IMG/VR virus record: IMGVR_UViG_2740892322_000001
Location: 1 to 19,665 of that record
DNA: 19,665 nucleotides
Direction: 5' to 3' (one strand)
Source: a virus
Taxonomy: Duplodnaviria > Heunggongvirae > Uroviricota > Caudoviricetes
Part shown: positions 1 to 17,677 of the stretch, in pieces
How the letters are laid out: every line of letters starts with the position of its first letter
How positions within the stretch are numbered: position 1 is the first letter of the stretch
Translations under genes and position numbers: made by a program
The notes under the pieces: model-generated
What the model was told of the DNA's origin: nothing
Database searches by the model: none
What the model saw: the letters and a program-made list of their open reading frames with translations, nothing else

Positions 1-260
1 AATTTCCCTTTGCATACCAGGGCAAAACCTTTCCAGCCGATATACACCGTCAGGACAGCGCCACGAACCGGCAGCCCGACCTGCCCGTCGGCATCGTTCA
101 GTTCAATATCAAGCTGGTCAGCCTCAAAGCCCCGGTTATCCGTCAGGGTCATACTCATCAGACGGTCGCTGATATTGCCGGTAATATCCCTGCTGTCGAG
201 CATCAGCATGTAATCCGGCGTCAGCGTACTGCCTGCATCAAATGTCAGCGTATCCAGCAT
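1..260 (-). CDS. D: P2 gpD-like tail protein, N-terminal part only; gene runs off the left edge of the window
   Basis: Hand translation of the minus strand from ATG at 258-260 gives MLDTLTFDAGSTLTPDYMLMLDSRDITGNISDRLMSMTLTDNRGFEADQLDIELNDADGQVGLPVRGAVLTVYIGWKGFALVCKGK, recalled as the gpD N-terminus. The start overlaps the U stop (TAATG). Not in the ORF track because it has no stop in the window. Confidence 0.8.
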   Translation of the reverse strand, partial: MLDTLTFDAGSTLTPDYMLMLDSRDITGNISDRLMSMTLTDNRGFEADQLDIELNDADGQVGLPVRGAVLTVYIGWKGFALVCKGK

Positions 261-561
261 TATCCCGCCCCCGTCATACCTGTGAATCTGGTCGCCATAC
301 TGCCAGCCTTACCGATGAGCGACTCCGCCTGTTTACCGATATCGCCATAAAGCGCGGCCAGTGATTCATCAACGCGGGTGAGCGACAGCGTAAAATCAAT
401 TTTCCGGGGTGTGCCGTCTGCAAAGAAAATCCGAGAAACTGGTAGGCATCCCGTTTACCGATACGGGAATTTGACGGCCAGCGATAATCTGATTCACGCT
501 GCATGGTCTGGTGTGGCAGCGTCTGGCGCATAAAAACAAACATACCTAACGCGAGCATCAT
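261..561 (-). pseudogene. U: gpU-like tail protein, frame-disrupted: N-terminal 44 aa in one frame, C-terminal ~57 aa in another, about 60 codons missing relative to P2 gpU
   Basis: ATGATG start at 556-561 with strong SD AAGGAGGTGA. The track ORF 274..561 reads gpU-like to ...YQFLG, then turns Arg/Ser/Cys-rich with rare codons. A different frame reads IFFADGTPRKIDFTLSLTRVDESLAALYGDIGKQAESLIGKAGSMATRFTGMTGAG with common codons, ending at TAA 261-263 overlapping the D start. P2 gpU recalled as ~159 aa. Confidence 0.55.
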
Positions 562-615
562 TTTTCGTCACCTCCTTAACCGTCATGCATCATGCTGGCA
601 CGGGCGCGCGCACGT

Positions 616-2862
616 TTATCCCGCTCGTATTTTTCGAGCGCCACCGGTGCCATACGTGGCGGCATGAGTTCTGGCGGCGGTCTGGTCAAGTGTGTCTGAC
701 TCTTTGTTGATGACCCCGAGCTTTTCCAGTACCCAGTCAATGCCGCTGCGTAATTTGTTGAACGCATTAAGCGGCAGCATCAGCGCGTCAGCCAGTGCCT
801 GCCCGAACATGACGCCCGTGTCACGGCAACGGTTCAGGGTGTCCTGGGTGGCTTTGACCGGTGCAATCAGGTTTTTAAACCACTGCCACGCGGCCTGTAA
901 CTTTTCGCCCAGCCAGTCAAACACCGGCTTAAGTGGCGTGAACAGTTCTCCCACCGGAGCAAATGCCGCTTTCAGCCCTTCCACCACACCGCCAAAGAAT
1001 GCGCTGACAGGCTCCCAGTATTTACGGATAAGCAACGCCCCGGCGACAATGGCAGCCACCACGGCCACAACCGGCCAGCTAATCGCCCCGATGGCCGTCA
1101 TAACGGCACTACCAACCGTCGTGAAGATTGCCCCCATTGCGCCTGCTGCCGCGATGATGGCATTGATGCCGGTGATAACCGGCCAGGCCACGAGGCCAAT
1201 GGCACCGATGATGCCAGTAAGCGCCAGTGCGCCACCGGCAATGAGACCAATGGTTGACGCCAGTGATTTGTTTTTCTGTATCCAGCCGTCGAGTTTTAAC
1301 ACATACTTTGTGGCCGTCTGCATGAGCTTACGCAGTGCGCCTTCCTGCTGGTCAAACAGGTCAGTCCCCACCGCCTCATAAGCGGACTGAAACTCCTTAA
1401 AGTCACCGCCGAGATTGTCCTGCATGATATTTACCAGCTCTGCGGTCTTCCCGTCTGAGGCTTTAAACGCAGCGGTCAGTTTGTCCAGCTTTCCGGTTGA
1501 GGCGGCAGTCATCAGCACGGCGGCGGCTGAGCTGGCCTCCTCCCCGAAAATGGTTTTCATGTATTCAGCCTGCTGGGCAGTACCGAGCCGGTTTTTCTCA
1601 AAACTGGCCTGCATTTCTTTCAGAATGGTAAATACTGGTCGGGTATTCCCTTTACTGTCTGAGGTTTTCACGCCAAGCTCTTTGAGTGCATCCCATGCTT
1701 TTCCCGTTGGTGCCTGCAGGCGACTTAACACGGCACGGCTTCCCGTCCCCGCCATTGAGCCTGTGATTTTTGCATCATGCAGCGCCCCGACCATTGCGGC
1801 GGTTTCTTCAATGCTGACACCGGCATTTTTTGCCACTGGTGCGGCATAGGTCAGCGCATCGCTCATGCCGTCAAAATCGGCGGCGGTTTTGTTCATCGTC
1901 ATGGAGAGAACATCCCCGATATGAGCGACCTTATCGTTTGAAAGCTGAAAGGCGGATTTCATCCCCATCAGCAGGGCGGCGTTTTCTTCCATCGTGCGGC
2001 GGTTCGCCAGTGCCATATTCAGCGTGACCGGCGTTGCCGCCTGAATGGCATCAACATCCCCACCGGCTTTCGCAATGATAATCTGTGCACCGGCTGCATC
2101 ATCCGCCGAGGCGGCAGTATTGTCACCGAGCTGGCGCGCCTGCTTGCGGAGTGCGGCCATTTCGGCGGAGTCTTTTGCCACACCTAGCACGGCCTGCAAT
2201 TCTGAGTTTTTCTGCGCAAACTCATAACCGGGCATCAGTAGCTTAACACCGGCCATCGTTCCCGCCGCCGCAATCCCCACACCGGCAGCGCCCACTGAGG
2301 CCATATTTCCGGCCAGTTCCTTTCCGGACTGATAACGCTGTTTTACTGCGTTAAGTTTTGCCTGTTGCGCACTGACACGCGCCAGCGCGTCGCGCTGACG
2401 GTTAAGCTGTGCGGTGGTTTCACTGATACGGTTTTTCAGTCCCTGCTCATCATGTGCAAGATTGCGGGTATTAATTCCCACAGCGGCCAGTTCCCGCTGC
2501 TGGCGTTTAACGGAATCCGTCAGGCGGTTATATTTCGCCTGTAAGTCCTCCGCCGCACGCTTTGCGGATTCCAGCACTTTCGCCTGAGCACGGGTCGGAC
2601 GTTCGGTGTTTTTAAACTGTGTGGCAAGGGCTTCGGCTTCCTGCCGAGCCTTTTCAAGTGCATGACCAGTCACGGCGAGCTGTGCACTGGTCTTGCGAAA
2701 TCCCTCAATACGGGATGCGTGACCGTTCAGCTCGCGCAGTGATTTTTGTGTGTCCCGGATATCCCCCGACAGCGACTTACTCGCTGTACGGATGGATTTA
2801 AACGGGCGGGATGCCTGGTCAACAGCCCTGAGCAATACCTGTAATTTTACATTGTTACTCAT
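616..2862 (-). CDS. T: tail tape measure protein (P2 gpT-like); C-terminal end probably frameshifted, see findings
   Basis: 748 aa ORF with coiled-coil Ala/Gln-rich N-terminal half and Gly/Ala-rich hydrophobic segments typical of tape measure proteins. Sits after E/E' as in P2. Start ATG 2860-2862 overlaps the E' stop. Confidence 0.85.
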   Translation of the reverse strand: MSNNVKLQVLLRAVDQASRPFKSIRTASKSLSGDIRDTQKSLRELNGHASRIEGFRKTSAQLAVTGHALEKARQEAEALATQFKNTERPTRAQAKVLESAKRAAEDLQAKYNRLTDSVKRQQRELAAVGINTRNLAHDEQGLKNRISETTAQLNRQRDALARVSAQQAKLNAVKQRYQSGKELAGNMASVGAAGVGIAAAGTMAGVKLLMPGYEFAQKNSELQAVLGVAKDSAEMAALRKQARQLGDNTAASADDAAGAQIIIAKAGGDVDAIQAATPVTLNMALANRRTMEENAALLMGMKSAFQLSNDKVAHIGDVLSMTMNKTAADFDGMSDALTYAAPVAKNAGVSIEETAAMVGALHDAKITGSMAGTGSRAVLSRLQAPTGKAWDALKELGVKTSDSKGNTRPVFTILKEMQASFEKNRLGTAQQAEYMKTIFGEEASSAAAVLMTAASTGKLDKLTAAFKASDGKTAELVNIMQDNLGGDFKEFQSAYEAVGTDLFDQQEGALRKLMQTATKYVLKLDGWIQKNKSLASTIGLIAGGALALTGIIGAIGLVAWPVITGINAIIAAAGAMGAIFTTVGSAVMTAIGAISWPVVAVVAAIVAGALLIRKYWEPVSAFFGGVVEGLKAAFAPVGELFTPLKPVFDWLGEKLQAAWQWFKNLIAPVKATQDTLNRCRDTGVMFGQALADALMLPLNAFNKLRSGIDWVLEKLGVINKESDTLDQTAARTHAATYGTGGARKIRAG

Positions 2863-3282
2863 TCGTGTTTCCGCTTCGCCGGAGCGCCTTTTCGCGCCAT
2901 GTGATGAGTTCGGTCAGGCTCATGGGATACAGTTCTGATGGCGGCCAGTGAAATATCACTGCCACATCCGCCATCAGGTCATCGACCGAGAGATTTTTCG
3001 GAAACGTCACTGCACCGAGTTCGGCGACAAAAAACCGACCACCTTACCGGCCAGCGCCACAAGGTCAGGCAGTTCCAGCGCGGCGACTTCCTGCTCGGTC
3101 AGCATCGGTGCCGTCATGCGCGGCAGCACCTTAATCAGTGCATCGACTTCGGAGTTTGCAACCGCAGCCAGACTGACACCGCGCAGCGTCCCGGCATTGG
3201 GTTTCATCAGCGTGACCTTTTCGATAACCTGCTCACCACGTTTGACCGGATTTTCCAGGGTAATGACATTTTCTTTGTTCAT
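2855..3282 (-). CDS. E+E': tail assembly chaperone gpE+E', made by programmed -1 ribosomal frameshift at 3028-3034
   Basis: Hand translation: after the slip the -1 frame reads VAELGAVTFPKNLSVDDLMADVAVIFHWPPSELYPMSLTELITWREKALRRSGNTNE and stops at TAA 2855-2857, overlapping the T start. Total about 142 aa, as recalled for P2 E+E'. Confidence 0.7.
3007..3282 (-). CDS. E: tail assembly chaperone gpE
   Basis: 91 aa, same length as P2 gpE. Contains the T_TTT_TTG slippery heptamer near its 3' end. Position between FII and T. Confidence 0.85.
   Translation of the reverse strand: MNKENVITLENPVKRGEQVIEKVTLMKPNAGTLRGVSLAAVANSEVDALIKVLPRMTAPMLTEQEVAALELPDLVALAGKVVGFLSPNSVQ
3028..3034 (-). promoter_or_regulatory. 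slippery heptamer T_TTT_TTG for the E/E' -1 frameshift
   Basis: Minus-strand codons GGT TTT TTG (G F L) in the E frame at 3036-3028; X_XXY_YYZ pattern characteristic of tail chaperone frameshift sites. Confidence 0.7.
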
Positions 3283-3338
3283 GGTTTTCTCACTTCTGAA
3301 TCAGGGTTAACCGGTCAGCCTGGCTGACCGGATGAAAA

Positions 3339-3857
3339 TCACAGGCCGATATTGCGGCGGTGTTGCTCCAGTCGGTCGACGCCGTTCACCTTCTCAATCA
3401 TGTTGATGGTGTCGATTTCGACCAGCTCCTTACCGTCCATCGTCAGCCGGAAATAGGTGCAGACCACGGAGATTTTCGACTCAGTGTCTTCTCCCTGTTT
3501 CCCCTCGCCGGTGTCGATTTCTTTCTGACGGCCACGCATGACCACCTCGACGGCCACCGTTTCGCCGGTATCGTCGCGCTGGTAAGAGCCTGCAAAACGA
3601 ATCGGCACGGCATCCACACCGGTTGCGGCGTAAAGCTCCCAGATAACCGAATCCGGGAAGCCCCCGAGCGACCACTCCATTGACAGCGCATCGTCATCAA
3701 GGCCGAGGTCTACCGGTGCGCTGCCGTTCATCCCCGCACCGCGATAGTTTTCGAGCTTACGGGTCAGTTTTGGCAGCGTGACGGACTTTGCAACGCCCTG
3801 ATAGCTGTAGCCGTTCAGAAAGACGTTCATTAACTTGAGTTTGCGCGGCATTGCCAT
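3339..3857 (-). CDS. FII: tail tube protein (P2 gpFII-like)
   Basis: 172 aa, same length as P2 FII, immediately downstream of the sheath gene. Confidence 0.9.
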   Translation of the reverse strand: MAMPRKLKLMNVFLNGYSYQGVAKSVTLPKLTRKLENYRGAGMNGSAPVDLGLDDDALSMEWSLGGFPDSVIWELYAATGVDAVPIRFAGSYQRDDTGETVAVEVVMRGRQKEIDTGEGKQGEDTESKISVVCTYFRLTMDGKELVEIDTINMIEKVNGVDRLEQHRRNIGL

Positions 3858-3869
3858 CGGTCAGGCTCC

Positions 3870-5060
3870 TTAATTGCTGTTAACCGAGGTGACCAGATTT
3901 GCCAGGTATTTATCGGTAATACGCTGGCGCAGGGTCAGGTTTTCAAGAGGAGGCACCGGGGTATAGTCGTAGTCGATATACAGTTTTCCGGCCTTGAGGG
4001 TTTCCGCATCGTTGGATTCTTCGCTGAACCAGCAGGTCGCATCCACGATATAGCCGTTTGTTTTCAGCTCACGGAATTTGGCATTAATGCCGTCAACGAT
4101 GTCGCGAATCAGCGTTGCGGTGATGGGCTTATCCACCGCCCACATGTGCGCCTCAGCCATCGTGTCGGCCAGCACCTGCGCGGTGCGGGTGTAGTTTTCA
4201 AAGAGGAACAGCGGGTCATCGGAGCAGGTACGGTTACCCCAGAAGCGGAAACCGTCGCGGCGAATCAGCGTTGTGACGCCTGACTCGTTAAGCAGGTCAG
4301 CATCGGTGCCGGACTCCTGCAAATCCCAGAATACAGAGGCGCTGATGCCGGTAACACCGTTCACCCCAACGTTGGACAGCGTTTTATGCCAGCCCTGCTC
4401 CTGGTCGATTTTAGCGCGCAGACCCAGCGCACGGGCGGTGGCATACGCGGTGGCGGTGGTACTGGTGACCGTATCCCATGCGAGGAAATCCGGCCAGATG
4501 ACCATCAGCTCACGCTGGCTGAAATTCTGGCGGTAGGCTTTCACCTCGGAAATGGTCTTACATCCCCATGCGCTGATATACCCGAAAGCACGCAGCTTCT
4601 GACAGACTGATGCCAGTGCAACAGCCACCTCTTTGGTGTCCAGTCCCGGCACGCCGAGAATACGCGGTTTAACACCAGTTACCGACTCCGCCGCCAGCAG
4701 GGCTTTCAGTCCGGTGTACTGACCGTTTTCGTCGGTGGTGCCGATGATATTGGAAACGGTCTGCGCGAGTTTCGTTTCCTCGTCGTCGCCGGTGCCGTCT
4801 TCCACACGCACGACAACGGTGACCGGTTTTGACTGGTCGGCGATAGCCTGCAACGATGCCGCCAGCGTGCCTTTTTTACCGGCCTTTGCAATCGCGCTCT
4901 GCACATTGGTAATCAGCACCGGTTTATTGAGGGGGAAGGTTTCCGCATCCGCATCGCTGGCCGTGCAGACCATGCCGACAATGGCGGTGGATACGGTGGA
5001 AATGACGCGGGTGCCGTCGTTAATCTCCAGCACCTGCACGCCATGATGATAGTCGCTCAT
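3870..5060 (-). CDS. FI: contractile tail sheath protein (P2 gpFI-like)
   Basis: 396 aa, same length as P2 FI. GGAG SD upstream of ATG at 5058-5060. Confidence 0.9.
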   Translation of the reverse strand: MSDYHHGVQVLEINDGTRVISTVSTAIVGMVCTASDADAETFPLNKPVLITNVQSAIAKAGKKGTLAASLQAIADQSKPVTVVVRVEDGTGDDEETKLAQTVSNIIGTTDENGQYTGLKALLAAESVTGVKPRILGVPGLDTKEVAVALASVCQKLRAFGYISAWGCKTISEVKAYRQNFSQRELMVIWPDFLAWDTVTSTTATAYATARALGLRAKIDQEQGWHKTLSNVGVNGVTGISASVFWDLQESGTDADLLNESGVTTLIRRDGFRFWGNRTCSDDPLFLFENYTRTAQVLADTMAEAHMWAVDKPITATLIRDIVDGINAKFRELKTNGYIVDATCWFSEESNDAETLKAGKLYIDYDYTPVPPLENLTLRQRITDKYLANLVTSVNSN

Positions 5061-5132
5061 CCGTTTAACTCCGTGGTTAATGGGTGCAACTATTTTCTGT
5101 TGGGCAGTGCATGAGACGCTATTTGACCTGGC

Positions 5133-5151
5133 TGGTCAGTGGATGAAACAA
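5133..5151 (-). promoter_or_regulatory. possible late promoter activator site upstream of FI (imperfect dyad TGGT-N11-ACAA; minus strand reads TGTTGT...)
   Basis: Dyad centred about 82 nt upstream of the FI ATG. Shares the TGTTGT half-site with the dyad upstream of V. P2 late promoters are recalled to carry a TGT-N12-ACA Ogr site near -55; the match here is imperfect. Confidence 0.25.
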
Positions 5152-5186
5152 CAGATAAAGAAAAGGCGGGCAATCAGCCCGCCCGT
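5151..5186 (-). terminator. rho-independent terminator downstream of the cargo gene, insulating it from the FI late operon
   Basis: Perfect 7-bp GC stem GGCGGGC / GCCCGCC (5165-5171, 5177-5183) with loop AATCA. On the minus strand it is followed by TTTTCTTTATC. Confidence 0.7.
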
Positions 5187-5494
5187 CCTGATTTGTACTC
5201 GCTCAGTTTCCAACTGACAATTTACGTAGCCAAAACGCTATCAGCTCTGACAGCCAGCTTTGAGCGAGTCGAAAAAGTTCATACCTTTCTGCTGGTGAAA
5301 GTTTAACTAACAGTTCAACCTATCAATTAATTGATGAACAGGTTGAGGCGTTTTTAATATCTCTGCGTCATCTGAGACGATTTTGCGCTACAGGATTTAC
5401 GGCTTATCTGGGGGCATTCTTGAGCCCTGACTCCTCTGAAAACATAATTAGGCCATACCTGTGACCTGCTCTTCGTTGGTAAGGTTAGCGAATA

Positions 5495-6604
5495 TTAATC
5501 TGAGTCCATTTTCCCAAACTCTGTCAGGCCGAAAACGGAGCTACCAGAAACATGAGCTTGTAAGCCCGCTTCCTGCATGTCACTTAATTCAACTTCTTGG
5601 CTATCCTCTAATCCGATAGAGAACATGGGATAGGCCCAGTTCCAATTCGGATCAGGAACCAAACTATTATTCTCTATCTTGAAAAAGCTGACCATGAGAT
5701 GATGCCTTCCCTGTATCGCCTCTTCATCATTGATGTTGACCAGTACACCAAAGTGCTTGTAGCCGGCTTGTCCATTCTCGAACATTTTTATCTTGGTGCC
5801 GTTTCTGAACATCCAAAAAGAATGATTTCCAGTGGAATCAGCGACCTGCAAGTTATCTTCGTCAATTTCCCAATTAAGATATTGTTTGATATCAGACTTT
5901 GGTTTGAGTTTTTCGTCATTACTAAACCATTGTATTGCCGGAAGTGGAAGGTGAAGACCTTCCGGCTGGGGAGGCTGACCTGCAGCAATGGAATGCATGA
6001 TCTCTGTCATTGATGGAAGCCCCATCAAATGCCATACATCATGGATATCCTTTTTAAGTATAAGAAGCCCTTTGGATACACCATCCGCGTAAGTTGACTT
6101 TAAGCGGACTAGTATGTCCTTGTTACCATCTTTGTCGAGGTCTTCAATGTTTACTGAAGAAGCCACAACCTCGTCGTCCCCTGCGTCTGGGATGATTGCC
6201 CAATACCCAATATCGTAGAATCCAGGTCTGCCAACCACCTTATCTATCAAACTCTGTCCAGAGGGCTCGAAGACCATCAGGAAACGGCTAAGGGCACCAT
6301 TTGTGCTCACAGTTCTTCCGTAGACTACAACGGAGTTTGAGGTGCTTAGATCGAGAGACTCGCTAGCCACTGAGTCAAACGCCACTGAGTCCAAATGTGT
6401 GGCAAGCTGCTGCTGGATGCACTCCCGAGCCATTTCAACTAATTTTTCGCGAACATCAGCAGATCGTATTGGCTGTGAAGTGAAATGGAAAAGCCCTACT
6501 GTAGCCGCTATGCCTATTATTCCCGAAATAACGGTACTTAGAACCTGCTCCTTTACCACTTTCACAACTTTCATCAATAGCTTCTTCAACTTCACTTCAG
6601 GCAC
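5495..6604 (-). CDS. hypothetical membrane-anchored protein, cargo gene at the Z/fun-equivalent locus; candidate anti-phage or superinfection-exclusion function
   Basis: 369 aa ORF from GTG 6602-6604. A more likely start is ATG 6572-6574 (MKVVKVVKEQ..., 359 aa) with a GAAG-type SD. Hydrophobic segment LSTVISGIIGIAATVGLFHF near the N-terminus. AT-rich relative to flanking late genes. No recognisable family by eye. Confidence 0.7.
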   Translation of the reverse strand: MPEVKLKKLLMKVVKVVKEQVLSTVISGIIGIAATVGLFHFTSQPIRSADVREKLVEMARECIQQQLATHLDSVAFDSVASESLDLSTSNSVVVYGRTVSTNGALSRFLMVFEPSGQSLIDKVVGRPGFYDIGYWAIIPDAGDDEVVASSVNIEDLDKDGNKDILVRLKSTYADGVSKGLLILKKDIHDVWHLMGLPSMTEIMHSIAAGQPPQPEGLHLPLPAIQWFSNDEKLKPKSDIKQYLNWEIDEDNLQVADSTGNHSFWMFRNGTKIKMFENGQAGYKHFGVLVNINDEEAIQGRHHLMVSFFKIENNSLVPDPNWNWAYPMFSIGLEDSQEVELSDMQEAGLQAHVSGSSVFGLTEFGKMDSD

Positions 6605-6902
6605 CTAAATACTATTAAACTTGTCATGGGAAAATCCGATTATTATTGTAGAGAACAACAAAAACTGGCCTCGATTTTAGAGTTTTTCCAGTATCTATTT
6701 TCCGACTCGTTCGGCGGTAATCCACCGTTATATTCATGAGGCCGGGGTGCACTATAATATTCAACTATATACTCTGTTTGTAGTGGCACATTAAATTTGG
6801 TGACAGATATGCATCACGTCCGCTCCTAGCACAGAGCGGACAGTCAGATTAGGTTTTACTCTGTGCCATAGATGAGTAATCTCACACCAGAGCTAATACG
6901 AT

Positions 6903-7481
6903 TTATTGCGGCATTTCAGGCCATTCTATATCCGGAGCATTTTCCGGCTGAACGCGATTAAGTAGCACACGGTATTTTTTCCAGTGTGTCAGGCTTAACT
7001 TTTCTTCCTCGGTAGCCATATCTAAATCGACAGCATCCTGCAGCATGGCAATGATTTCACCTGCATATGCAATCTGCTCTTTCTTCTGAGACTCAGCCGC
7101 TCTGACAAGTGCATCACGCTCTGCATTCTCATCATTCACCCACGCATTTCCGTTCCATTTCTGATAATCCCCCTCCGGGGAAATGGCTGTCACGTCTGGA
7201 GGTAATGCGCCAAGTTCAGAAATATAAATGGCTGCTCCCGTTTTCGTTTCGTAGACAGTCTTTCCGCGATGATCTTCCATCAACTCCCATTTCATTTCAT
7301 CTGCATTGAAAACGGCTGCATAACCAGCAGGAATATCAGGTGGTGCAATATCTGTACTGTTTGCAGGCAGGCCAGTATACGGCGGAATATATGCATCACT
7401 TTCGCCAATAAACTCATTGGTTCCATCAAGTAAATTGAAAACGCGGATAGTTTGTGCTTCTGCACTCATTCTGAAAGCCAT
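6903..7481 (-). CDS. G: tail fibre assembly chaperone (gpG / Tfa-like)
   Basis: 192 aa ORF immediately downstream of H with overlapping stop/start at 7481, as in the P2 H-G pair. P2 G recalled as 175 aa, so this is a variant chaperone matched to the variant H. Confidence 0.8.
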
Positions 7482-10099
7482 TATGCAAGCCTCACAATAT
7501 AGTTAAATGCGATGTTTTTGACGGTGTTTTCGGTATTGCCAGTAGCATTTACGGTAATGGAATGCCCGTGTGAGCCAATAGCAACAGTGTGTGAATGTGC
7601 ACCAATACCAACAGTATGGTTATGTGCTCCAATGTCGACTGTATGTGCATGATTGCCTGATGAACTTGTAGTCGTAGCACCTTTATCACTTCGCGGAACA
7701 CCATAATCTGCACCGCCTGATTGCACGCTCACAGCAAAACCGACGGTATGTGTATGATTGCCAGAAGTATTGGTTGATTTTGTGCCGTGGTTAAACGTAC
7801 TGACTGTTTTTGTCCCGTAATCAAATGAACTGGTCGTTTTCGTTCCTAAGTCCGTATTTGACGCACTGGCGCTGTGAGTATGCGATTTAATCCCGTCCTG
7901 TTCCTGTGACAATACGGCACGCCCACTGGCGGGTTTGCCCTTGATTGTCCAGCCGCGCATATCTGGAATAACACCAGAAGGATAGGCAATAGCCAGTTTC
8001 GGATATGCTGCCTTATCAAACGTCTGTCCCTGCATGATTGCATAGCCTGCAGGCGGTGTATCTGATGGCCATGGCAGCGGAACACCTGGCGGAAATACTT
8101 CAATATTTGCCGAGCCGTCAAATTTCACGCCGTTAATTGTCCTTGCCGTTTTCAGCTTTGTTGCTGTAGCCGCATTGCCGGACAGTTCGCCTGAAAGACC
8201 ACCGCTGAATGTCTGTTTCGCCGCCCATGTCTGAGCTTCGTCGATAATTGGCACACGTCTTGTCGTGATCGTGCGGCTTCCCGGATTTCCTGAAATACGC
8301 ACCATAAAAAAGCGGTAATTCGCTTTACTTACAGTGCTGCGCCATACATGCATTGAGCGCCCCGTACCGGAATCATCACTCGGACCAACTGCGATGTTTA
8401 TCAGGTTGCCATCAATGACGCCCCAGTCCATACCGTCGGGAATGTTGGTCATGTTATCAAGCCGAACGGTTATCAGACTGCCCGGCACAAAGTCGTGGGT
8501 CTGCCAGTCCAGGCTGGTGAGCTTTGCCACTGCACCGCCGATACCCAGATTCAGGGGAAGTGAATACGAGGTGTAGACTTCCCGCCATTCGCTCCACGAG
8601 CTGCCGGTATAGACGCGCTCAAACGTGCGACCTTTAAGGGTTGCACCTGTTCCGGCAGTTGTATAACGCTGCCATACGTTAACACCATCAAAGCGCCTCA
8701 ACACTTCCAGAATACCGAGGACTGTCACGCCGTTTCCGTCCAGTATTGGACCGTTGGTCGCTTTACCTGTAACGCTGTAAATACCTGGTGAAGTCACATC
8801 ATTCAAATCCCCGTCGTAATAACGACTCTCTGACTGATGACCAACTCTTAACCACGGTTCCCACTGCGGATTTGATGCATCCCAGCTTGCCGCAAGGCAG
8901 CGGACGTACATATTTCCACGGCGAGTGGTATAACGTTGCGTTCTTCCATAATTCCCGCCTTCGAGGATCTCAAGCGTCCCCTGAGCAAAGCCGCCTTCCT
9001 CTGGATAATTGCGTTCATATGAAGCTATAGCCGAGCTACTGTTACGCCATAAACCAAGATGCTCGGCGGCTCCAAGCGTATTCAGGTCTATAGTCGTACT
9101 CAAAGGGCGGGTCGCTGATTGAGTGTGACGCCATACGCCCCACGGACCATCAGTGCCATTCCACTTATTGGCGAGTTTACGCATGTATACATTGCCGTCT
9201 CTTGTGGTAAAGCGTTGCGTACCTGCAAAATTGCCGGCAGCAAAAACCTCAAGCACACCGACAGCATTATCTTCCGGGAAATTTTTCTCCAGTGTTGCGT
9301 TGGTGGATGTTGCTTTAGACCAGATACCTGAATAAGCCTTAACAGGACCAAACGTATTCAGATCAGCATCAACCGGCATTTCGCCATTGTTTTTCATAAA
9401 CGTCAGGCTGGTAACGCCAACATTGTCCAGAAAAGCTGATTTATCCTGGATATCTGCACCGTTCTGATTTTTCGCCAGACGTGAATTTGCGTTGTCATTC
9501 GCAGCCTTGACCGCTTTTGGCGTTGCCGCCAGTGACTCACTGGTGCTGTTTGTTGCACTGCTTAACTGAGTAAAACCTTTCTCTGTCAGCGTGGCGTCAG
9601 GATGGCGGCGGGACTGCTCATGCTCTGCGATTTTGTCATCGACGTAATCCTGCGTCGCCATCACTGTGCTGGCATCAATACTCAGCTCAACGGACGCCAC
9701 GTTACTGAGAATAATAACCATGCGGCAGGTCTGCGCACGTCCGGAGCCTTCAGCCAGTTCTGGCTTATAGCTTTCTGCCATGTTGGATACCGCAATCAGT
9801 GTTCCGGCATCATCATACAGACCAAGCTCACGCATCCAGAAGCCGCCCACTTCTGGCGGAACAACCAGTTCAGCCACGATATAGTTTTTATTCTTGTTAT
9901 CCACACTGACTTTATTCAGAGCGTGACGCCAGACTTCATGCACCAGTTTCGTCTGACCGGCATCCGGCACCGGCAATTGGCCATTACCGTCACCCACAGC
10001 CATTGCAGACAGGTTTACTTTTTTCCCGCCGGGAACAGTAGCGGCTGCCAGCTTCGCGGCTCCGGCAGTAGTGATAACGGTTTTAAATTTCGTGCTCAT
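7481..10099 (-). CDS. H: tail fibre protein (gpH-like), mosaic: P2-H-like N-terminus, divergent repeat-containing distal region, His-x-His-rich C-terminus
   Basis: 872 aa (P2 H recalled as 669 aa). N-terminal ~200 aa [20 protein letters not shown]...[20 protein letters not shown] matches P2 H. C-terminus [36 protein letters not shown]...[11 protein letters not shown]. Confidence 0.85.
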
Positions 10100-10109
10100 T
10101 GTTTCTCAC

Positions 10110-10640
10110 TTATCCGGGATAAACAGTAATAACATCACCATCACAGACCACACCGCCTGTATACAGATAGCCGGGAATGTCCTGGATAATGTTCAGACCG
10201 ATAAGGTGGCGACTTGCGGGTTTGGCATCGGCAATCAGCCGTTCCATTTCCAGATACATCTCCTCCGTGATGCCGCTTTCCAGCACACCGATATCAAGGC
10301 GAAAGGTTCCGGGCGGGTCGTTTGTCTCCCACCATTCCTTTACGTTAATGAGATAGCCGAGCGGCTCCACCACACGCCGGATTGCGCCGATAGTGCCTTT
10401 ATGACAGTGGATGAAATAGGCATCGCGGATAACGGCGCGTTTTGTCGCTTCCGGCCACTTTTCATCCCACCTGTCGACCGAAAACGCCCACGCCAGCCAC
10501 GGCAGCAGATTTGCCGGGCAGGTGTCCGGGTTCCACAGCTCACGAATACTGACCGGCGTTTTTTCAATTTCCGCACAGGCTTTTGCGGCGGCGACCTCAA
10601 GCGGTGATGAGCCGGTCGGCAGCAGGCGCGAATCACTCAT
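10110..10640 (-). CDS. I: baseplate assembly protein (P2 gpI-like)
   Basis: 176 aa, same length as P2 I; overlaps the J stop by 8 nt. Confidence 0.85.
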   Translation of the reverse strand: MSDSRLLPTGSSPLEVAAAKACAEIEKTPVSIRELWNPDTCPANLLPWLAWAFSVDRWDEKWPEATKRAVIRDAYFIHCHKGTIGAIRRVVEPLGYLINVKEWWETNDPPGTFRLDIGVLESGITEEMYLEMERLIADAKPASRHLIGLNIIQDIPGYLYTGGVVCDGDVITVYPG

Positions 10641-11541
10641 CCGAGCCTCCGGTCACAACGCGGTATTCGGTACAGAAAGACGCCTGCGTATTGTTGAGCA
10701 CGATGTCGGCCAGTGGTGCAGCCAGTTCGACACGCTGCACGCCTTCCACATGCAAAGCGGCATAAATGGCAGACAGACGGATGTCGCGCCCCAGCCGGTG
10801 CTGTGCCGTGATGTACGCTTCCAGTTTTTTCACGGCAGCAGCGCGGATGGGTTCGCTTTCGGGACCAGGGTAAAGGTAAAGCGTGGCGTTTATCTGGTAT
10901 TCAACGATGGCGGCAGACTGCACGGTCACGCGGTCGGCCACCGGCCTGACGTCCTCACCATTAAGGGCGTTACGCACCACCGCCAGCAGGTCTTCGGAAG
11001 CGACACCGTTATTTTCACGTGACAGCACAGAGATGGTGACACAGGCCGGAGACGGACTGGTGACAGAGATATCCGCGACACGCCCGTCAGCACTGCGTCC
11101 ATGATACTGATAGGCACCCACCGACCCGGCGACGCTTAAACCTTCAAACGCCTGCTGAATACGCAGACGATAATCGGTGTCAGATTCCATCACTGCCGGT
11201 GTCGGCGGGATGGTCGAATCATCTGCCGGGGTGATAATCAGGCGCGTGGTGTTGTAATTGGCACCAATCACATCAAGGTCATTACCGGCGGCACAGGCCA
11301 GCATCACCGCCCGTGCGGCCTCATTCACACGCTGACGCCAGATAAGCTCACGATAAGCATTTTCCTCCAGCAGTTTGACGAGAGGCTCAGATTCCAGTGT
11401 CAGGGTACGGGCGACCGCCTCCTGCTGGTCTTCCGGGTAAAGGGAAATCAGTGTCGCCTTGCGTTCGGCAAGAATGGTTTCAAAGTCCAGCTCCTCGACC
11501 ACATCCGGTGCGGGTAGCTGGTTCAGGTCGATAATCGGCAT
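10633..11541 (-). CDS. J: baseplate assembly protein (P2 gpJ-like)
   Basis: 302 aa, same length as P2 J; follows W. Confidence 0.85.
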   Translation of the reverse strand: MPIIDLNQLPAPDVVEELDFETILAERKATLISLYPEDQQEAVARTLTLESEPLVKLLEENAYRELIWRQRVNEAARAVMLACAAGNDLDVIGANYNTTRLIITPADDSTIPPTPAVMESDTDYRLRIQQAFEGLSVAGSVGAYQYHGRSADGRVADISVTSPSPACVTISVLSRENNGVASEDLLAVVRNALNGEDVRPVADRVTVQSAAIVEYQINATLYLYPGPESEPIRAAAVKKLEAYITAQHRLGRDIRLSAIYAALHVEGVQRVELAAPLADIVLNNTQASFCTEYRVVTGGSDE

Positions 11542-11545
11542 GGTT

Positions 11546-11893
11546 TCAACTCACAGGGATGGTTAACGAAAGTGGCTGGCCGGTGTCGTTGTGCTGGCCG
11601 GTTAACGTGACCGTCATTCGCCCGTCAAAACTGCGCTCAGTGGTGACGGATGACAGGGTGACGCGGGGTTCCCATTTCAGCACCGCCATGTAACAGGCGA
11701 CCTTAATCTGCAACTCAAGCGCCGGGGTCTGCGGCTGGTCAATCATTGACGCCAGCAACGAGCCGTAATCACGACGCATCACCCGTGAGCCGACCGGTGT
11801 GCGCAGGATATCGCCGATACTCTGGCTGATATGCTCAAGGTCAGTGACAGTCAGGCCATCACTGCGATTCATTCCGAGATAACGCGCTGTCAT
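11546..11893 (-). CDS. W: baseplate wedge protein (P2 gpW-like)
   Basis: 115 aa, same length as P2 W; start overlaps the V stop by 4 nt. Confidence 0.85.
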   Translation of the reverse strand: MTARYLGMNRSDGLTVTDLEHISQSIGDILRTPVGSRVMRRDYGSLLASMIDQPQTPALELQIKVACYMAVLKWEPRVTLSSVTTERSFDGRMTVTLTGQHNDTGQPLSLTIPVS

Positions 11894-12525
11894 AAAGGAC
11901 TCCCGGTTGTGCCGCCGCTGTCGCCGGGGTGTTTATGGGTATGCAGTACCTTACCGTTTGATGAGAGTTCACCGCCGGTGTGTTCAATGTTGCCGCGCAT
12001 CGTCCCGCCCTTCTGCACTTCCAGCGTGCCGGTGATCAGCTTGTTTGTGCAGACCACCTCCGGCGTGTCCAGAGTGATGCGGGTTGATGCTTTCACCATG
12101 ACCACCGGCACCGTGGCAGTAACAGAATCAGAAGCCGTCACGCTGGCCGTTTTAATTCCGCTTACCGTAAGCGCACTGGTTTCGGGTTCATACTCAATCA
12201 CCGCCCCGTCAGGGAAACGGATATGCAGGGCATCCGCCGACGCAGACGGCGCAGGGTTATCGCCGGAATAAATCCCCGGCAGAACGAACGCCGTGTCGAG
12301 TTCACCGCCCACGGCCAGAATCAGCACCTGTTCCCCCACGGAAGGTGCCCACCATGTGCGCGAACGTCCGGCGCGATGGGTCAGCCACTGAAGCCAGTCG
12401 GTGCACATGCCGCCGGTCTGCACACGGCAGCGACCGGCGTTAAGGTCGGTTTCAACGATAATGCCGGTACGAATCATGTTGCGCAGTGCGCGCGCGAGTT
12501 CCTGAATATTTGCGAGAGTGTCCAT
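11890..12525 (-). CDS. V: baseplate spike / assembly protein (P2 gpV-like)
   Basis: Track ORF 11890..12543 begins at TTG. The likely true start is ATG 12523-12525 (MDTLANIQELARALRNM..., 211 aa), matching the recalled P2 V N-terminus and length. Confidence 0.85.
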   Translation of the reverse strand: MDTLANIQELARALRNMIRTGIIVETDLNAGRCRVQTGGMCTDWLQWLTHRAGRSRTWWAPSVGEQVLILAVGGELDTAFVLPGIYSGDNPAPSASADALHIRFPDGAVIEYEPETSALTVSGIKTASVTASDSVTATVPVVMVKASTRITLDTPEVVCTNKLITGTLEVQKGGTMRGNIEHTGGELSSNGKVLHTHKHPGDSGGTTGSPL

Positions 12526-12572
12526 GCATGTGAGATTGCACAATATATAAAAGTTATGCTATCTGGATTCAT

Positions 12573-12591
12573 TTGTAGAACCACCAGACAA
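12573..12591. promoter_or_regulatory. perfect dyad TTGT-N11-ACAA between divergent V and the plus-strand cargo gene; candidate late promoter activator site for V and/or operator for the cargo gene
   Basis: ttgtagaaccaccagacaa is symmetric. Centre about 57 nt upstream of the V ATG and 18-36 nt upstream of the cargo ATG. Resembles but does not exactly match the recalled P2 late promoter TGT-N12-ACA element. Confidence 0.3.
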
Positions 12592-12608
12592 CATTCAAGG
12601 AGAGCGTA

Positions 12609-13394
12609 ATGGTCAGCTATAATGTGACTAATGTGTGGGAGCTAATCGTTTTGTATCTTTTGGTCTTTGCAGTATTAGCATTTTTTAGCTTTGGTAAAAG
12701 TAACCTTATGAGGCTTATTGCACATTATTTCAAATTTGGATATTCAGACAAAAAATTAAAAAGACTGGACCGCGAGTGGCGCGACATTCAACTATTTAAA
12801 ATACTTAACGGAATCAATGTATCAGGCATCGAAGATGTGAGAATGATACAGCAGGGGCTGATTGATGGAAAACTAAAAACATCGGATTTTTTCCTTACTC
12901 GCTTCTGGGGAGACATAACAGAACCGCCATGCATCACAAAAACAATGAGTGCAGTCCTGGCCGGAATTCTTTATATTATCTTCGCATGTTGCATACACAA
13001 CGAGCAATCTGCCATAGTAGAGGATGCCATAGCCATACCATATAAAAATATGATGTACCATGTTTATAATGACAAGGTTCTTTTGTTCTCCGACAATAAA
13101 ACAGATAAGTTCTATAAAGCTTTTAGCATTGCCGATTGCAAGAGACTGCAGAACACTTTTGTAACAGACACACTTCCTGCAATCGCCTGCAATAAGCTCT
13201 TACAGCTAAACGAGGAGGACTCCGAATGGTTAAGTCAGGAGATTAAAGATAATAACAGCCACAGAAAAACATTATTAATAATATCCCTAATCTATTTCAT
13301 TTCAGGTCTATTTATATTCCTGTCATACACAAAATTCCTTTACGCCAATAAGAAGGTTTTAGAATACAAAGCATCAAATAAAAACCACTCATAA
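12609..13394 (+). CDS. hypothetical integral membrane protein (three predicted TM helices), cargo gene at the S/V junction (P2 orf30 position)
   Basis: 261 aa ORF with strong SD AAGGAG 6 nt before the ATG. Very AT-rich, Lys/Asn/Ile/Phe-rich. Hydrophobic segments ELIVLYLLVFAVLAFFSF, MSAVLAGILYIIFACCI and LLIISLIYFISGLFIFLSY. Opposite strand to all flanking late genes. Confidence 0.7.
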   Translation: MVSYNVTNVWELIVLYLLVFAVLAFFSFGKSNLMRLIAHYFKFGYSDKKLKRLDREWRDIQLFKILNGINVSGIEDVRMIQQGLIDGKLKTSDFFLTRFWGDITEPPCITKTMSAVLAGILYIIFACCIHNEQSAIVEDAIAIPYKNMMYHVYNDKVLLFSDNKTDKFYKAFSIADCKRLQNTFVTDTLPAIACNKLLQLNEEDSEWLSQEIKDNNSHRKTLLIISLIYFISGLFIFLSYTKFLYANKKVLEYKASNKNHS

Positions 13395-13463
13395 ACCTCT
13401 AAACATTGCGACCAGCACGGCCGCTCAATGTTTAATTGCGCATCAGCCTCTGCCTGGATAAAA

Positions 13464-13916
13464 CTAACGCTCAAGGTGAGCCAGGATAATCTCTTCAATC
13501 ATCTGCACATCCTCACCGGTAAAGCCGAGCAGAGGACGCGCCGGATAATCAGTTTTCTTACCGTCTTTCCGGGTTTCTTCCGACAGACCGAACTGATGCA
13601 CACTGGCAATTTTCGGCGACTTCCCGCCGTAAAACTCCATTGATGCCTGTTCCGGGCTGGCGCGGATATGCAAAAAACGACTGGTGATAAGTTTCGCAAA
13701 CATTTTTCGCTTAACACGACCGGTCTTTTTTCTGGCGCTCTGCTGCTGGCGTGGCACGTAGGGTGTGCCGTCCGGGGCTTTCTGTGCCATCACCCGACGC
13801 TGCTGACTCTGACGCAGACGTTTCGCCAGTTCGGCGCTCAGTCGCCGACGCCCTGACGGTGACAGCGATTCAGTCAGTCCGGTCAGCCGGTCTTCAAAAC
13901 GCTTAAACTCATTCAT
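13464..13916 (-). CDS. S: tail completion protein (P2 gpS-like)
   Basis: 150 aa, same length as P2 S; overlaps the R stop. Confidence 0.85.
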   Translation of the reverse strand: MNEFKRFEDRLTGLTESLSPSGRRRLSAELAKRLRQSQQRRVMAQKAPDGTPYVPRQQQSARKKTGRVKRKMFAKLITSRFLHIRASPEQASMEFYGGKSPKIASVHQFGLSEETRKDGKKTDYPARPLLGFTGEDVQMIEEIILAHLER

Positions 13917-14376
13917 CCCACTTGCTCACCAGTTCGCCATTGATATACAGCTCCATCGGGCGGGTAACCGGCTCCGGCGGCGGAGGTTCCGGGATATTCT
14001 TCACATGTAGCGCGCCTTCCACCTCACTGACCAGCGTGCGCTCGGTCAGCATCAGGCTGATGCTGATATCAAAGCTGCTGTCATTGTTGATGTCTGCATA
14101 AAACGTGAAGCCCTTTTTCTGGCCTTCGTCGGTGGTCATGATGTCTGGCTGATTTTCCCGCAGCCACGCCAGCACCGGCACAATGAGCAGGTCAAAATCA
14201 CCGGTAAAGTCGGTCACAATCACATTGAGCGTGTAACGCTTTTCGAATGACATAGACGTCGCCAGTGTGGAGGCAATACTCCCGTTATCCACGAATATCC
14301 GCAGCATCTCGGGACTGGTTTTCAGCACCGTGACGGCGTCAGTCAGCGCCCTGCGCAGGCTGTCGGGTTTGAGCAT
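13909..14376 (-). CDS. R: tail completion protein (P2 gpR-like)
   Basis: 155 aa, same length as P2 R. Confidence 0.85.
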   Translation of the reverse strand: MLKPDSLRRALTDAVTVLKTSPEMLRIFVDNGSIASTLATSMSFEKRYTLNVIVTDFTGDFDLLIVPVLAWLRENQPDIMTTDEGQKKGFTFYADINNDSSFDISISLMLTERTLVSEVEGALHVKNIPEPPPPEPVTRPMELYINGELVSKWDE

Positions 14377-14629
14377 CGTTTTCGTCCTGACAGTGTTTAA
14401 TCATTTTTACCTGGCTGGCACAGCGTGCCAGCGCGTTCTCAAGCTGCCGGATATCAGCACTTAAATCGCCGTTCGTCTGCGGGTCACTGCCCGGCATCGG
14501 GCAAAGGCTCACTTTCGGGCAGGCGTTGGCGACAATCACTGGCGTCGGTGCAGGCCGGACGCTGGTGCAACCGGCGCACAACATCAGGCAGGTCAGCGCC
14601 GTACCAGCGGCGAAAATCTTCGTTTTCAT
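14339..14629 (-). CDS. lysC: outer-membrane spanin lipoprotein (P2 LysC / Rz1-like), starting inside lysB in another frame and overlapping R
   Basis: ATG 14627-14629 with GAGG SD gives a 96 aa product MKTKIFAAGTALTCLMLCAGC... with a lipoprotein-type signal and Cys. Same length as P2 LysC. Starts inside lysB and extends into R. Confidence 0.7.
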   Translation of the reverse strand: MKTKIFAAGTALTCLMLCAGCTSVRPAPTPVIVANACPKVSLCPMPGSDPQTNGDLSADIRQLENALARCASQVKMIKHCQDENDAQTRQPAQGAD

Positions 14630-14909
14630 TGAGTAACCTCGTGATGGTTTTCTCGCGCTGTGCTTCACGCTTCGCGGCGTTCTCCAGTTCCTGACGCAGT
14701 ACCACCTGCGCCAGCTCGTTTTTGTCTGCTCTGGTGAGGGCAACATGAAGCTGATTTTTCAGCATGGTGATAGTCGTCTGCTGCCCGCTGGCGACGTTGT
14801 TCGCCCTGTCCAGCGAGGCGCGCAGGCTGGCATTTTTATGTTTCACCAGAAACAGCCCCGCCACCGCCAGCGATAACAACACAACCAGTACAATCATCAG
14901 CTTTGACAT
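14484..14909 (-). CDS. lysB: inner-membrane spanin (P2 LysB / Rz-like)
   Basis: 141 aa with N-terminal TM MIVLVVLLSLAVAGLFLV followed by a coiled-coil-like charged region. Same length as P2 LysB. Confidence 0.8.
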   Translation of the reverse strand: MSKLMIVLVVLLSLAVAGLFLVKHKNASLRASLDRANNVASGQQTTITMLKNQLHVALTRADKNELAQVVLRQELENAAKREAQREKTITRLLNENEDFRRWYGADLPDVVRRLHQRPACTDASDCRQRLPESEPLPDAGQ

Positions 14910-15322
14910 GGTTCCCGCCCCTCAAAACGCTGACGGCAGGCCGTACGTATCAGCCGGAAGAACACCGACGCCACGAGGTAAATCAGCGCAGTAAAAATCC
15001 ACCCGGCAGCGACCAGCGAGATAAACGTCGCCACCATCACCACCAGAGCCGCCGCCCGTCTGCGCCACGGCACCGGCTGCAAAAACAGCGACGTGACAAT
15101 CTTCACGGCCAGCGATTCCGGCGGCAGCTCCCGCCCGTAGCGTTCCAGCACATACTCCGTGGCATACACGCCGACACCACCGGCAACCACACAGATAACC
15201 GTCGCCAGAATCGCCCAGGTGGCGACAAAACTGACGGCCACGCTCTGCGGGTAAATCAGGGACAGTGCCAGCATCAGCGCCAGCGACACGTTCAGCATCA
15301 GTGAAAGGGATAATTTCTTCAT
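14897..15322 (-). CDS. lysA: lysis timing / antiholin-like membrane protein (P2 LysA-like)
   Basis: 141 aa with multiple hydrophobic segments; same length and position as P2 LysA. Confidence 0.75.
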   Translation of the reverse strand: MKKLSLSLMLNVSLALMLALSLIYPQSVAVSFVATWAILATVICVVAGGVGVYATEYVLERYGRELPPESLAVKIVTSLFLQPVPWRRRAAALVVMVATFISLVAAGWIFTALIYLVASVFFRLIRTACRQRFEGREPCQS

Positions 15323-15336
15323 GGTGTTTACTCCGT

Positions 15337-15834
15337 TTAAGCCGGTACGCCGCCGGCGGTACGCCAGACGGTGACCAGTTTTTCCAGTGAATGCTCACGC
15401 TGACCGTAACCGGCACCCGGCAGGGACGCCCAGATATTGCGACAGCGTGAAATGGCGCGCTCAATGCGTCCCGCCCGGATGTCATCCAGTGCACCGCGTT
15501 CGCGGATCAACTGAATGGCGAGCCTGTCCTGTGACAACGGACTGAAATCCGGCAGGGCAAGCTGTTTGCGGTAGTGCGGCCAGAACAGGTAAAGCTGCTG
15601 ATAGCGACCGGAGGCCGTGGATTTTTCACCGCGACGGTTAAACACCTTCGCCGGTCGGCCATGCGCGAACGGGTGGTCACTGTAGTCGGTGAAAATTTCC
15701 GGCTTTCCGTCCAGTCCGGTGACTATCACGTCATAGCCCCGGTTTTTCGTCAGCGGATGATTCGCCGTCCCTTCGGACACGGCCAGCATGTCGAGAAAGG
15801 CGGCGATATTCTGATGCGTGTTAATTACCGGCAT
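15337..15834 (-). CDS. K: endolysin (P2 gpK-like; clearly resembles lambda R lytic transglycosylase)
   Basis: 165 aa. Motifs FLDMLAVSEGT, GYDVIV, FTDYSDHP, SGRYQ, IWASLPGAGYGQ match the recalled lambda R / P2 K family. Start overlaps the Y stop. Confidence 0.85.
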   Translation of the reverse strand: MPVINTHQNIAAFLDMLAVSEGTANHPLTKNRGYDVIVTGLDGKPEIFTDYSDHPFAHGRPAKVFNRRGEKSTASGRYQQLYLFWPHYRKQLALPDFSPLSQDRLAIQLIRERGALDDIRAGRIERAISRCRNIWASLPGAGYGQREHSLEKLVTVWRTAGGVPA

Positions 15835-16115
15835 TACGGTTTCCCCCTGCCCTTAAAGCGGCGCTGAATGGCAATCTCAATCACCTGATAACCGGCGATA
15901 CCCAGCATGGAACCGATGCCGCACACCGCAGGCAGTGACAGGTCAGGAAACTGCACCAGAACAACACCGGCAACCATCGAGACAAAACCGCCGAGCAACA
16001 TGCGCCCGATAAACAGACGCGGGGTGATGGGTTCACCACCGGCAAGCACCTTGCCGACAACAATCAGCACCCCAATCATGAAAAGCGACAGGACGCTTTT
16101 TTCTTCTGCTGTCAT
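15834..16115 (-). CDS. Y: holin (P2 gpY-like)
   Basis: 93 aa with hydrophobic TM segments and charged C-terminus; same length and position as P2 Y. Confidence 0.85.
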   Translation of the reverse strand: MTAEEKSVLSLFMIGVLIVVGKVLAGGEPITPRLFIGRMLLGGFVSMVAGVVLVQFPDLSLPAVCGIGSMLGIAGYQVIEIAIQRRFKGRGKP

Positions 16116-16118
16116 GCG

Positions 16119-16831: not shown

Positions 16832-16930
16832 GACTACCTCTGAAAAGTCGGGCGGTGGACGCCGGTGCAGTGTCAGGTGATTCACCCTCACTGACCGGCG
16901 TGCCGCCCTGGCGCGGGGCGCATTCGGTTG

Positions 16931-17674: not shown

Positions 17675-17677
17675 CGG

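Follow-up and report, generated by a model that had tools for sequence, protein, structure and literature searches.

A P2-like prophage of Escherichia coli carries, between its tail genes G and FI, a single gene whose 359-amino-acid product belongs to a rare protein family and is a reasonable candidate for a phage block at the cell envelope. The gene lies in a 19,665-nucleotide stretch of viral DNA (IMG/VR record IMGVR_UViG_2740892322_000001, positions 1 to 19,665; hereafter the window) that covers the late-gene region of the prophage, encoded on the minus strand. E. coli O25b:H4 has an identical stretch beside yegQ and ogrK, in which the 359-amino-acid open reading frame (ORF) is annotated; the host lineage of the prophage is E. 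coli sequence type 131 (O25b:H4-ST131). The findings are consistent with an accessory protein of the envelope that is under selection on mobile elements specialised in anti-phage cargo. The more specific reading, in which the gene codes for a single-gene, envelope-level anti-phage protein of the superinfection-exclusion type, is one that we consider quite possible without holding it to be probable.

The gene is flanked by the tail-fibre assembly gene G (Caudo_TAP, 6903-7481) and the tail sheath gene FI (3870-5060), and the same gap is occupied by fun(Z) in P2. Since P2 backbone DNA spans G down to about 6812 and then runs from 5268 down to FI, the insert measures about 1.5 kilobases (kb). The flanking DNA is 92-94% identical to that of P2-like phages and also aligns with annotated inverted repeats, and the GC content is 0.41-0.47 across the insert compared to 0.55-0.59 in the tail genes. 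Located between G and FI with conserved flanks on both sides, the gene fits the positional class of P2 Z/fun-slot cargo. This slot is treated in the literature as a hotspot for cargo and defence genes (10.1101/2024.10.15.618418; 10.64898/2026.02.27.708500). Unannotated single genes are common in the P2 and P4 hotspots and often prove defensive once assayed, and most of the unknown genes picked at random from the related P4 hotspots are reported to be protective against phages (10.64898/2026.02.27.708500).

An initial annotation, made from the letters of the DNA, had described an unrecognised, AT-rich gene of 359-369 amino acids in the G-FI gap, had equated this gap with the Z/fun hotspot of P2, and had preferred the ATG at 6572-6574 to the GTG at 6602 as start codon. 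The ORF, its flanks and position, the base composition, the P2 alignment and the cited literature all agree with this description. The 359-amino-acid coding sequence is real and forms an intact ORF at 5495-6574 on the minus strand; the longer form, 5495-6604 on the same strand, has 369 codons counted from the GTG. Translation almost certainly begins with the ATG at 6572-6574, because RefSeq uses this codon (WP_001599801.1, 359 amino acids, "hypothetical protein"), because the 359-position profile of PHROG 15038 aligns end to end with residues 11-369 of the long form (E value 3e-259), and because AAGGAG stands 7-8 nucleotides (nt) 5' of the equivalent ATG in the homologous loci L002, L004 and L013. 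The in-frame GTG at 6602-6604, inside the leader, is probably not the start. The parts of the insert and its edges are as follows.

5495-6574, minus strand: coding sequence of the 359-amino-acid protein (ORF, RefSeq start, PHROG 15038, ratio of nonsynonymous to synonymous substitution rates).
6575-6647, minus strand: conserved 5' leader that travels with the gene and holds the in-frame GTG and the ribosome-binding region (DNA homology).
5257-5494, minus strand: non-coding 3' stretch that travels with the gene (homology to L002, L004, L006 and L014).
6643-6777, minus strand: remnant of an IS3-family transposase (RefSeq annotation, cassette comparison).
6812-6902, no strand assigned: P2 backbone 3' of G, the left slot edge, with a palindrome (alignment to P2 and P2-EC58).
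5061-5268, no strand assigned: P2 backbone 5' of FI, the right slot edge, with a strong hairpin (P2 alignment, 92-94% identity).

The gene had also been credited with its own terminator and with an upstream region of about 300 base pairs (bp). The terminator comes down to a weak terminator-like hairpin (5450-5467) near the 3' end of the gene, and the strong one (5164-5184, minus strand) belongs to the P2 backbone, just before the F-operon promoter region. The upstream gap is real and measures 328 bp, with the correction that part of it is the IS3 remnant. This remnant, of about 130 bp, sits directly 5' of the leader; its 44-amino-acid fragment was not recognised in a Pfam scan.

PHROG 15038 is the same family as the 359-amino-acid protein, catalogued from prophages. 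As it comes without function or description, it names the family but explains nothing. No family match was found for the protein in NCBIfam or in Pfam, even at an E value of 10 in the latter, and neither the protein nor its profile matched any PDB sequence. No model of PADLOC-DB 2.0.0 (2023 library) was matched by the window protein or by any of 31 family members, and library scans detected no nuclease, ATPase or other enzyme signature in any of the 31. The initial annotation, which had recognised no defence family, toxin, nuclease or ATPase in the product, is thus in line with these libraries. A full-text literature search for WP_001599801.1 and for VCBS in defence islands found nothing. The family is uncharacterised and catalogued solely as PHROG 15038; P2-hotspot cargo that is possibly defensive is already well known as a kind.

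The family is also rare. No homologue was found by tblastn among 50,697 phage records, P2 included, or among 72,556 plasmids. A word-indexed search of 5.8 billion proteins returned 15 clusters with 43-99% identity, and a second such search with wide alignment added nothing further. An exhaustive profile search of 1.84 billion cluster representatives gave 67 matches, about 30 of which are full-length relatives of 340-420 amino acids; the remainder are fragments and long FG-GAP repeat proteins that cover only profile positions 131-177. Close relatives among 185,579 species-representative genomes were confined to Escherichia albertii and two Pantoea. Relatives also occur in Erwinia and in environmental metagenomes, the distant members being mostly metagenomic singletons, with one from a Desulfobulbaceae bin. 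Of 5426 complete E. coli genomes, 54 carry the gene, always on the chromosome and with 99% identity or more, and 51 of these have an intact ORF. In the other three (NZ_CP107162.1, NZ_AP022032.1 and NZ_AP022549.1) the gene is matched in two pieces or in part, suggesting occasional disruption, perhaps by insertion sequences. The ratio of nonsynonymous to synonymous substitution rates (dN/dS) was 0.18-0.26 in all 15 pairwise comparisons among the window gene and five homologues, indicating that the protein is under purifying selection.

A 1.39-kb DNA module (window 5257-6647), which begins about 73 bp 5' of the ATG and ends about 238 bp beyond the stop codon, is shared across unrelated settings. 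L002, L003 and L005 carry it in a CP4-57-like island, L004 in a different, Erwinia-type island with a P4-type primase, and L006-L009 in accessory regions of lambdoid prophages, beside GmrSD, an NgoMIV restriction-modification pair and DUF4238. L013 and L014 are from Pantoea, and in L013 the gene comes after an NsnA/PD-T4-2_A-like gene and a RiboL-PSP HEPN gene. Distant members adjoin an AAA_13 protein; a type I restriction R subunit (HsdR) together with an integrase; HNH, deaminase, BamHI restriction-modification and resolvase genes; a DUF559 endonuclease-like gene; and a VRR_NUC protein. Altogether, defence or mobile-element genes (restriction-modification, GmrSD, PD-T4-2-like, AAA_13, HsdR, HNH/deaminase, DUF559 and mobile-element types) were found in 10-12 of about 16 distinct neighbourhoods, counts that have no background control. 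Recurrence of homologues in other defence islands, which the initial annotation had named as a check, is seen, though as a tally without statistical control. Its alternative, conservation solely as part of tail-fibre modules, does not describe the 359-amino-acid gene, which is not tied to such modules.

There is no constant partner gene. Because no neighbour is conserved across the contexts, the 359-amino-acid gene behaves as a single-gene unit. The upstream neighbours are mutually unrelated, and searching them with Pfam and PADLOC gave no match except for the NsnA-like and HEPN pair of L013.

Two sets of these upstream neighbours recur. A gene for a 245-amino-acid protein precedes the family gene in L002 (7086-7823), L004 and L013, between the palindrome of the left edge and the family gene, where the window has its IS3 remnant. 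Its product contains the stretch R-N-I-M-A-H (RxxxxH, by eye), has no Pfam or PADLOC match, and may itself be an uncharacterised defence protein. In L006-L009, L014 and L022, which are lambdoid prophage and Pantoea contexts, an unannotated gene pair (1154-1966 and 1970-2725 in L009) lies 5' of the family gene and adjoins GmrSD; it codes for one product of 270-275 amino acids and for another of 251 amino acids that has N-terminal hydrophobic segments, and neither product has a Pfam or PADLOC match. First impressions of the 245-amino-acid protein as HEPN-like and of the 251-amino-acid protein as AbiC-like were not confirmed by the tools.

The protein was modelled with AlphaFold2 using an alignment of 31 sequences reaching down to 18% identity, which gave a predicted local distance difference test score (pLDDT) of 90.1 and a predicted template modelling score (pTM) of 0.84; this model replaced a poor one (pLDDT 58) built from 11 close sequences. 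It places in order a transmembrane helix (residues 2-32), a second helix (38-57), a beta domain (61-185), a well-ordered linker and another beta domain (239-355). Profile searches and structure prediction, both proposed by the initial annotation, have in this way led to a rare uncharacterised family and a confident model with two beta domains. No similarity between the two domains was found by hhalign at the sequence level, and we rejected the idea that they are an internal duplication. Foldseek searches against PDB and BFVD (viral models) returned nothing at an E value of 0.001 or lower. The coding positions of the protein features, all on the minus strand, are listed here.

6488-6544, minus strand: transmembrane signal anchor, residues 11-29 (hydropathy peak 2.13; model helix 2-32).
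6020-6394, minus strand: beta domain 1, residues 61-185, after helix 38-57 (model).
6095-6175, minus strand: single FG-GAP-like loop, residues 134-160, DEVVASSVNIEDLDKDGNKDILVRLKS (hhalign, profile hits).
5510-5860, minus strand: beta domain 2, residues 239-355 (model, conservation counts).
5618-5653, minus strand: family signature D-x-x-W-N-W-G/A-Y-P-M-x-S, residues 308-319 (conservation over 31 members).

The hydropathy profile shows a single membrane segment, and together with the model helix it bears out the N-terminal hydrophobic anchor noticed at first sight. Summed over the 31 members, the flank N-terminal to this segment contains 101 Lys and Arg residues against 43 Asp and Glu (net +58), and the C-terminal flank 65 against 60 (net +5). 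By the positive-inside rule, these charges predict that the N-terminus is cytoplasmic and that the bulk of the protein, about 320 residues, faces the periplasm. A juxtamembrane motif, F-x-x-T-S-x-P, is conserved in the family.

The FG-GAP or calcium-type stretch pointed out by the initial annotation was recovered at the level of a motif. Proteins with FG-GAP or FG-GAP_3 repeats hit the family profile only at positions 131-177, and hhalign aligned residues 134-160 with an FG-GAP protein. The loop carries the calcium-loop signature DxDxDGxxD at D145-D153 (D145-L-D147-K-D149-G150-N-K-D153), conserved in the 31 members at D145 (30/31), D147 (26/31), D149 (26/31, plus three with Asn), G150 (30/31) and the acidic position 153 (Glu or Asp in 27/31), and this DxDxDGxxD/E loop is predicted to bind calcium. 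FG-GAP/VCBS proteins (PF01839, PF13517) share the 27-residue stretch with its signature, and UniRef labels one homologue a "VCBS repeat-containing protein". Membership in that repeat family was rejected, as the protein has no Pfam hit up to an E value of 10 and only a single repeat; it has one repeat and, in the model, two small beta domains, whereas FG-GAP/VCBS propellers have several repeats and are closed.

The Trp/Asn-rich C-terminal region, likewise noted at the outset, contains the most conserved part of the family, the motif DPNWNWAYPMFS. In the family signature (residues 308-319), D308, W311 and N312 are each kept in 30 of 31 members and S319 in 28, the other three having Thr. Most of the near-invariant polar and aromatic residues fall in beta domain 2, namely R257-N258-G259, D283, H291, D308, W311-N312, S319 and H341. 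As three members have Thr in place of S319, these Trp, Asn, Asp and His residues seem more likely to form a surface for binding than an active site.

With its resemblance to a periplasmic binder and its lack of enzyme motifs, the product leads us to favour entry exclusion. A non-enzymatic layout on the periplasmic side, as predicted, suggests the exclusion of incoming phages or sensing at the envelope rather than a classical defence system of the cytoplasm. In the anti-phage role and mechanism that we infer, the Z/fun slot of a P2-like prophage harbours a self-contained accessory gene (a moron) whose product would be a bitopic inner-membrane protein: the short N-terminus, positively charged, would stay cytoplasmic, a single signal-anchor helix would span the membrane, and some 320 residues would lie in the periplasm. 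Domain 1 would be a partial propeller, FG-GAP-derived and PliI-like, with one calcium-type loop, and domain 2 would expose the conserved Trp/Asn/Asp/His surface. The protein would shield the lysogen at the envelope in the fashion of superinfection exclusion by binding, in the periplasm, a target on which entry of the phage genome depends, for example the incoming phage's tail-associated peptidoglycan hydrolase or ejection protein, peptidoglycan, or an inner-membrane entry factor, and infection would be halted before the DNA gets to the cytoplasm.

There is precedent for such a mode. T4 Spackle is a periplasmic inhibitor of the gp5 tail lysozyme (PMC7677548), and P22 SieA is a prophage-encoded inner-membrane exclusion protein (PMC10883804). 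Spackle, Imm and SieA are each the product of a single phage or prophage gene; of small to medium size, they reside in the periplasm or inner membrane, where they act as non-enzymatic binders and keep the phage genome from entering (PMC7677548, PMC10883804). In its predicted location and architecture, the 359-amino-acid protein fits this mode, whereas no sequence or fold relationship to any of the three was found (Foldseek, PDB and BFVD). Unlike these classical exclusion genes, the family is also present in chromosomal defence islands far from prophages. The occupant of the same slot in P2, Fun(Z) (NP_046777.1), is comparable as non-essential, AT-rich cargo, and its record states that the cloned gene blocks the growth of T5. 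Fun(Z) has 528 amino acids, is encoded on the strand opposite to the late genes and contains a GEKGTGKT stretch (a P-loop, by eye); in contrast, the 359-amino-acid protein is encoded co-directionally with the late genes, is membrane-anchored and lacks a nucleoside triphosphatase motif. Homology between the two, which the initial annotation had entertained as an outcome that would undo its proposal, was rejected (best BLASTP E value of 6).

A second set of known proteins bears on what the periplasmic part might do. PliI, Tsi1 and X-Tfi XAC2610 have been described as inhibitors of propeller-like shape that use a loop to block peptidoglycan hydrolases (PMC10933484), and the FG-GAP proteins that match the family loop also weakly match Pfam PliI. 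Compared to this class, the 359-amino-acid protein has about three times the size and an additional, unrelated beta domain, and it carries a membrane anchor in place of a signal peptide or lipobox; no hydrolase effector gene was adjacent in any context read. A bolder version of the exclusion reading is a new class of single-gene anti-phage proteins of the envelope in which an FG-GAP-derived, PliI-like periplasmic domain, tethered to the inner membrane, would neutralise the peptidoglycan hydrolase or ejection proteins of an incoming tail much as Spackle does, with the difference that various Proteobacteria would have them in prophages and in defence islands of the chromosome, instead of a lytic phage carrying them. 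We regard that version as unlikely, if worth stating.

Several observations weigh against an anti-phage role at the envelope or against parts of it. The gene is a candidate for a defence role, and its link with defence genes is uncontrolled guilt by association; in three or four contexts, including L030, L026 and the P0042 contig, all genes seen are metabolic or lack annotation. The distant member P0040 has two hydrophobic segments near its N-terminus, and the second, provided that the gene call is right, would invert the topology. No sigma-70 promoter with more than 8 of 12 consensus matches was found in the 328-bp upstream gap, and no good one inside the leader; as the gene is also co-directional with the late tail operons, its expression in the lysogen is unproven. 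Pfam PliI (PF16743) matched neither the 359-amino-acid protein nor any of the 31 members. NCBIfam XAC2610_fam (NF047539) was rejected as well, its one match among the 31 (P0038, residues 211-257) scoring 21.7 bits against a cut-off of 35 and falling outside the FG-GAP loop. With a sub-cut-off match in one member and in another region, the likeness to hydrolase inhibitors is a structural lead and not membership. The initial proposal of a candidate defence gene is supported in part, by the hotspot slot, by the uncharacterised family and by the recurrence beside defence genes.

Were the protein protective, a family of unusual architecture would join the short list of defences that act before DNA entry, as catalogued defence systems are mostly cytoplasmic enzymes, whereas the prediction here is of a non-enzymatic protein of the periplasm that bears a calcium loop. 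A function would also be gained for Z/fun-slot cargo of the pandemic ST131 lineage, with relevance to host range in phage therapy. Otherwise, it would be another hypothetical moron gene.

The same architecture could serve a different kind of defence. The periplasmic domains might sense entry damage or a phage component, upon which the membrane helix, perhaps oligomerised, would collapse the membrane potential so that the cell dies before phage release. Many single-gene membrane proteins in defence islands are regarded as effectors, and both the setting of this single-gene, membrane-anchored protein and its conserved juxtamembrane F-x-x-T-S-x-P are compatible with such abortive infection or envelope sensing. 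There is only one transmembrane helix, though, no pore-forming or enzymatic domain is recognisable, and beta structure, folded and predicted to lie in the periplasm, makes up about 90% of the protein, which suits binding over killing; we therefore judge this explanation rather improbable.

Slightly less likely still is a lysogenic-conversion factor unrelated to phages, which could inhibit host lysozyme from the membrane or act in some other way in the envelope or in contact with the host, to the advantage of the extra-intestinal pathogenic E. coli lineage with the prophage. Virulence effects are frequent among prophage morons, the model fold may resemble a periplasmic lysozyme inhibitor, and the E. 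coli copies are confined to the P2-like prophage and come almost only from human clinical isolates, including O25b:H4-ST131. A host-lysozyme role leaves unexplained the relatives in Pantoea, Erwinia, a Desulfobulbaceae bin, environmental metagenomes and settings resembling defence islands.

If the periplasmic part does inhibit a peptidoglycan hydrolase, the hydrolase might instead be an effector that competing bacteria inject with a type VI or type IV secretion system, and the gene an orphan immunity gene, like Tsi1 or X-Tfi XAC2610, that mobile elements carry as protection. This is improbable, since none of the contexts read has an effector or secretion-system gene beside the family gene, the sole trace being a weak Tlde1 fragment of 44 amino acids that lies 2.6 kb off in L004. 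The neighbours are mainly defence genes that target nucleic acids, and the XAC2610 match is below cut-off in a single member. Least likely of all is that the gene is the inactive leftover of a two-gene system whose 245-amino-acid partner, retained in L002, L004 and L013, was destroyed by the IS3 event, given that L006-L009, L014 and L022 have other upstream neighbours and distant members yet others, that homology between contexts begins just about 73 bp 5' of the ATG, that 51 of the 54 E. coli genomes keep the ORF whole, and that dN/dS between the window gene and the E. albertii copies is 0.18, with few substitutions.

Envelope-level exclusion thus remains the reading that we prefer for the gene, and the edges of the insert bear on how such cargo moves. 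The palindrome GTCCGCT-N10-AGCGGAC at 6818-6841 marks the left slot edge, within the annotated "left inverted repeat" of P2-EC58. It is also present in L002-L005, at cassette edges or intergenic sites of unrelated enterobacterial islands (1391-1414 and 6901-6924 in L002; 4746-4769, 6861-6884 and 6901-6924 in L004), and by chance alone the window should contain no copy. A piece of some 50 nt from the right edge (P2 DNA 5' of FI) recurs in L002 and L004 at 9286-9338. A gapless search for long inverted repeats around the window insert was negative, with only the short palindrome and the shared edges found. The shared palindromes and edges suggest, from comparison of the DNA, an exchange of cassettes at common short sites, and the 1.4-kb module with its shared palindromic slot edges offers a tractable case of cargo-cassette movement between P2 prophages and unrelated islands.

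The non-coding tail of the module is 238 bp long and has neither an Rfam match nor an ORF of at least 20 amino acids on the strand of the gene. Its first 45 nt or so are kept in all contexts, at 78-92% identity to the window copy (65% in L014), a conservation that exceeds the level implied by synonymous divergence. At 5139-5306 on the plus strand, RefSeq annotates a 55-amino-acid hypothetical protein (WP_023908562.1) that spans the boundary between backbone and insert and overlaps the terminator-like hairpin; this call is probably spurious. The window contains a second AT-rich moron at 12609-13394 (plus strand, GC content 0.35-0.42), located between the baseplate gene V and the tail-completion genes and on the opposite strand. 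Its 261-amino-acid product belongs to PHROG 2407 (function unknown) and has no Pfam or PADLOC match, and it too is a hotspot cargo gene.

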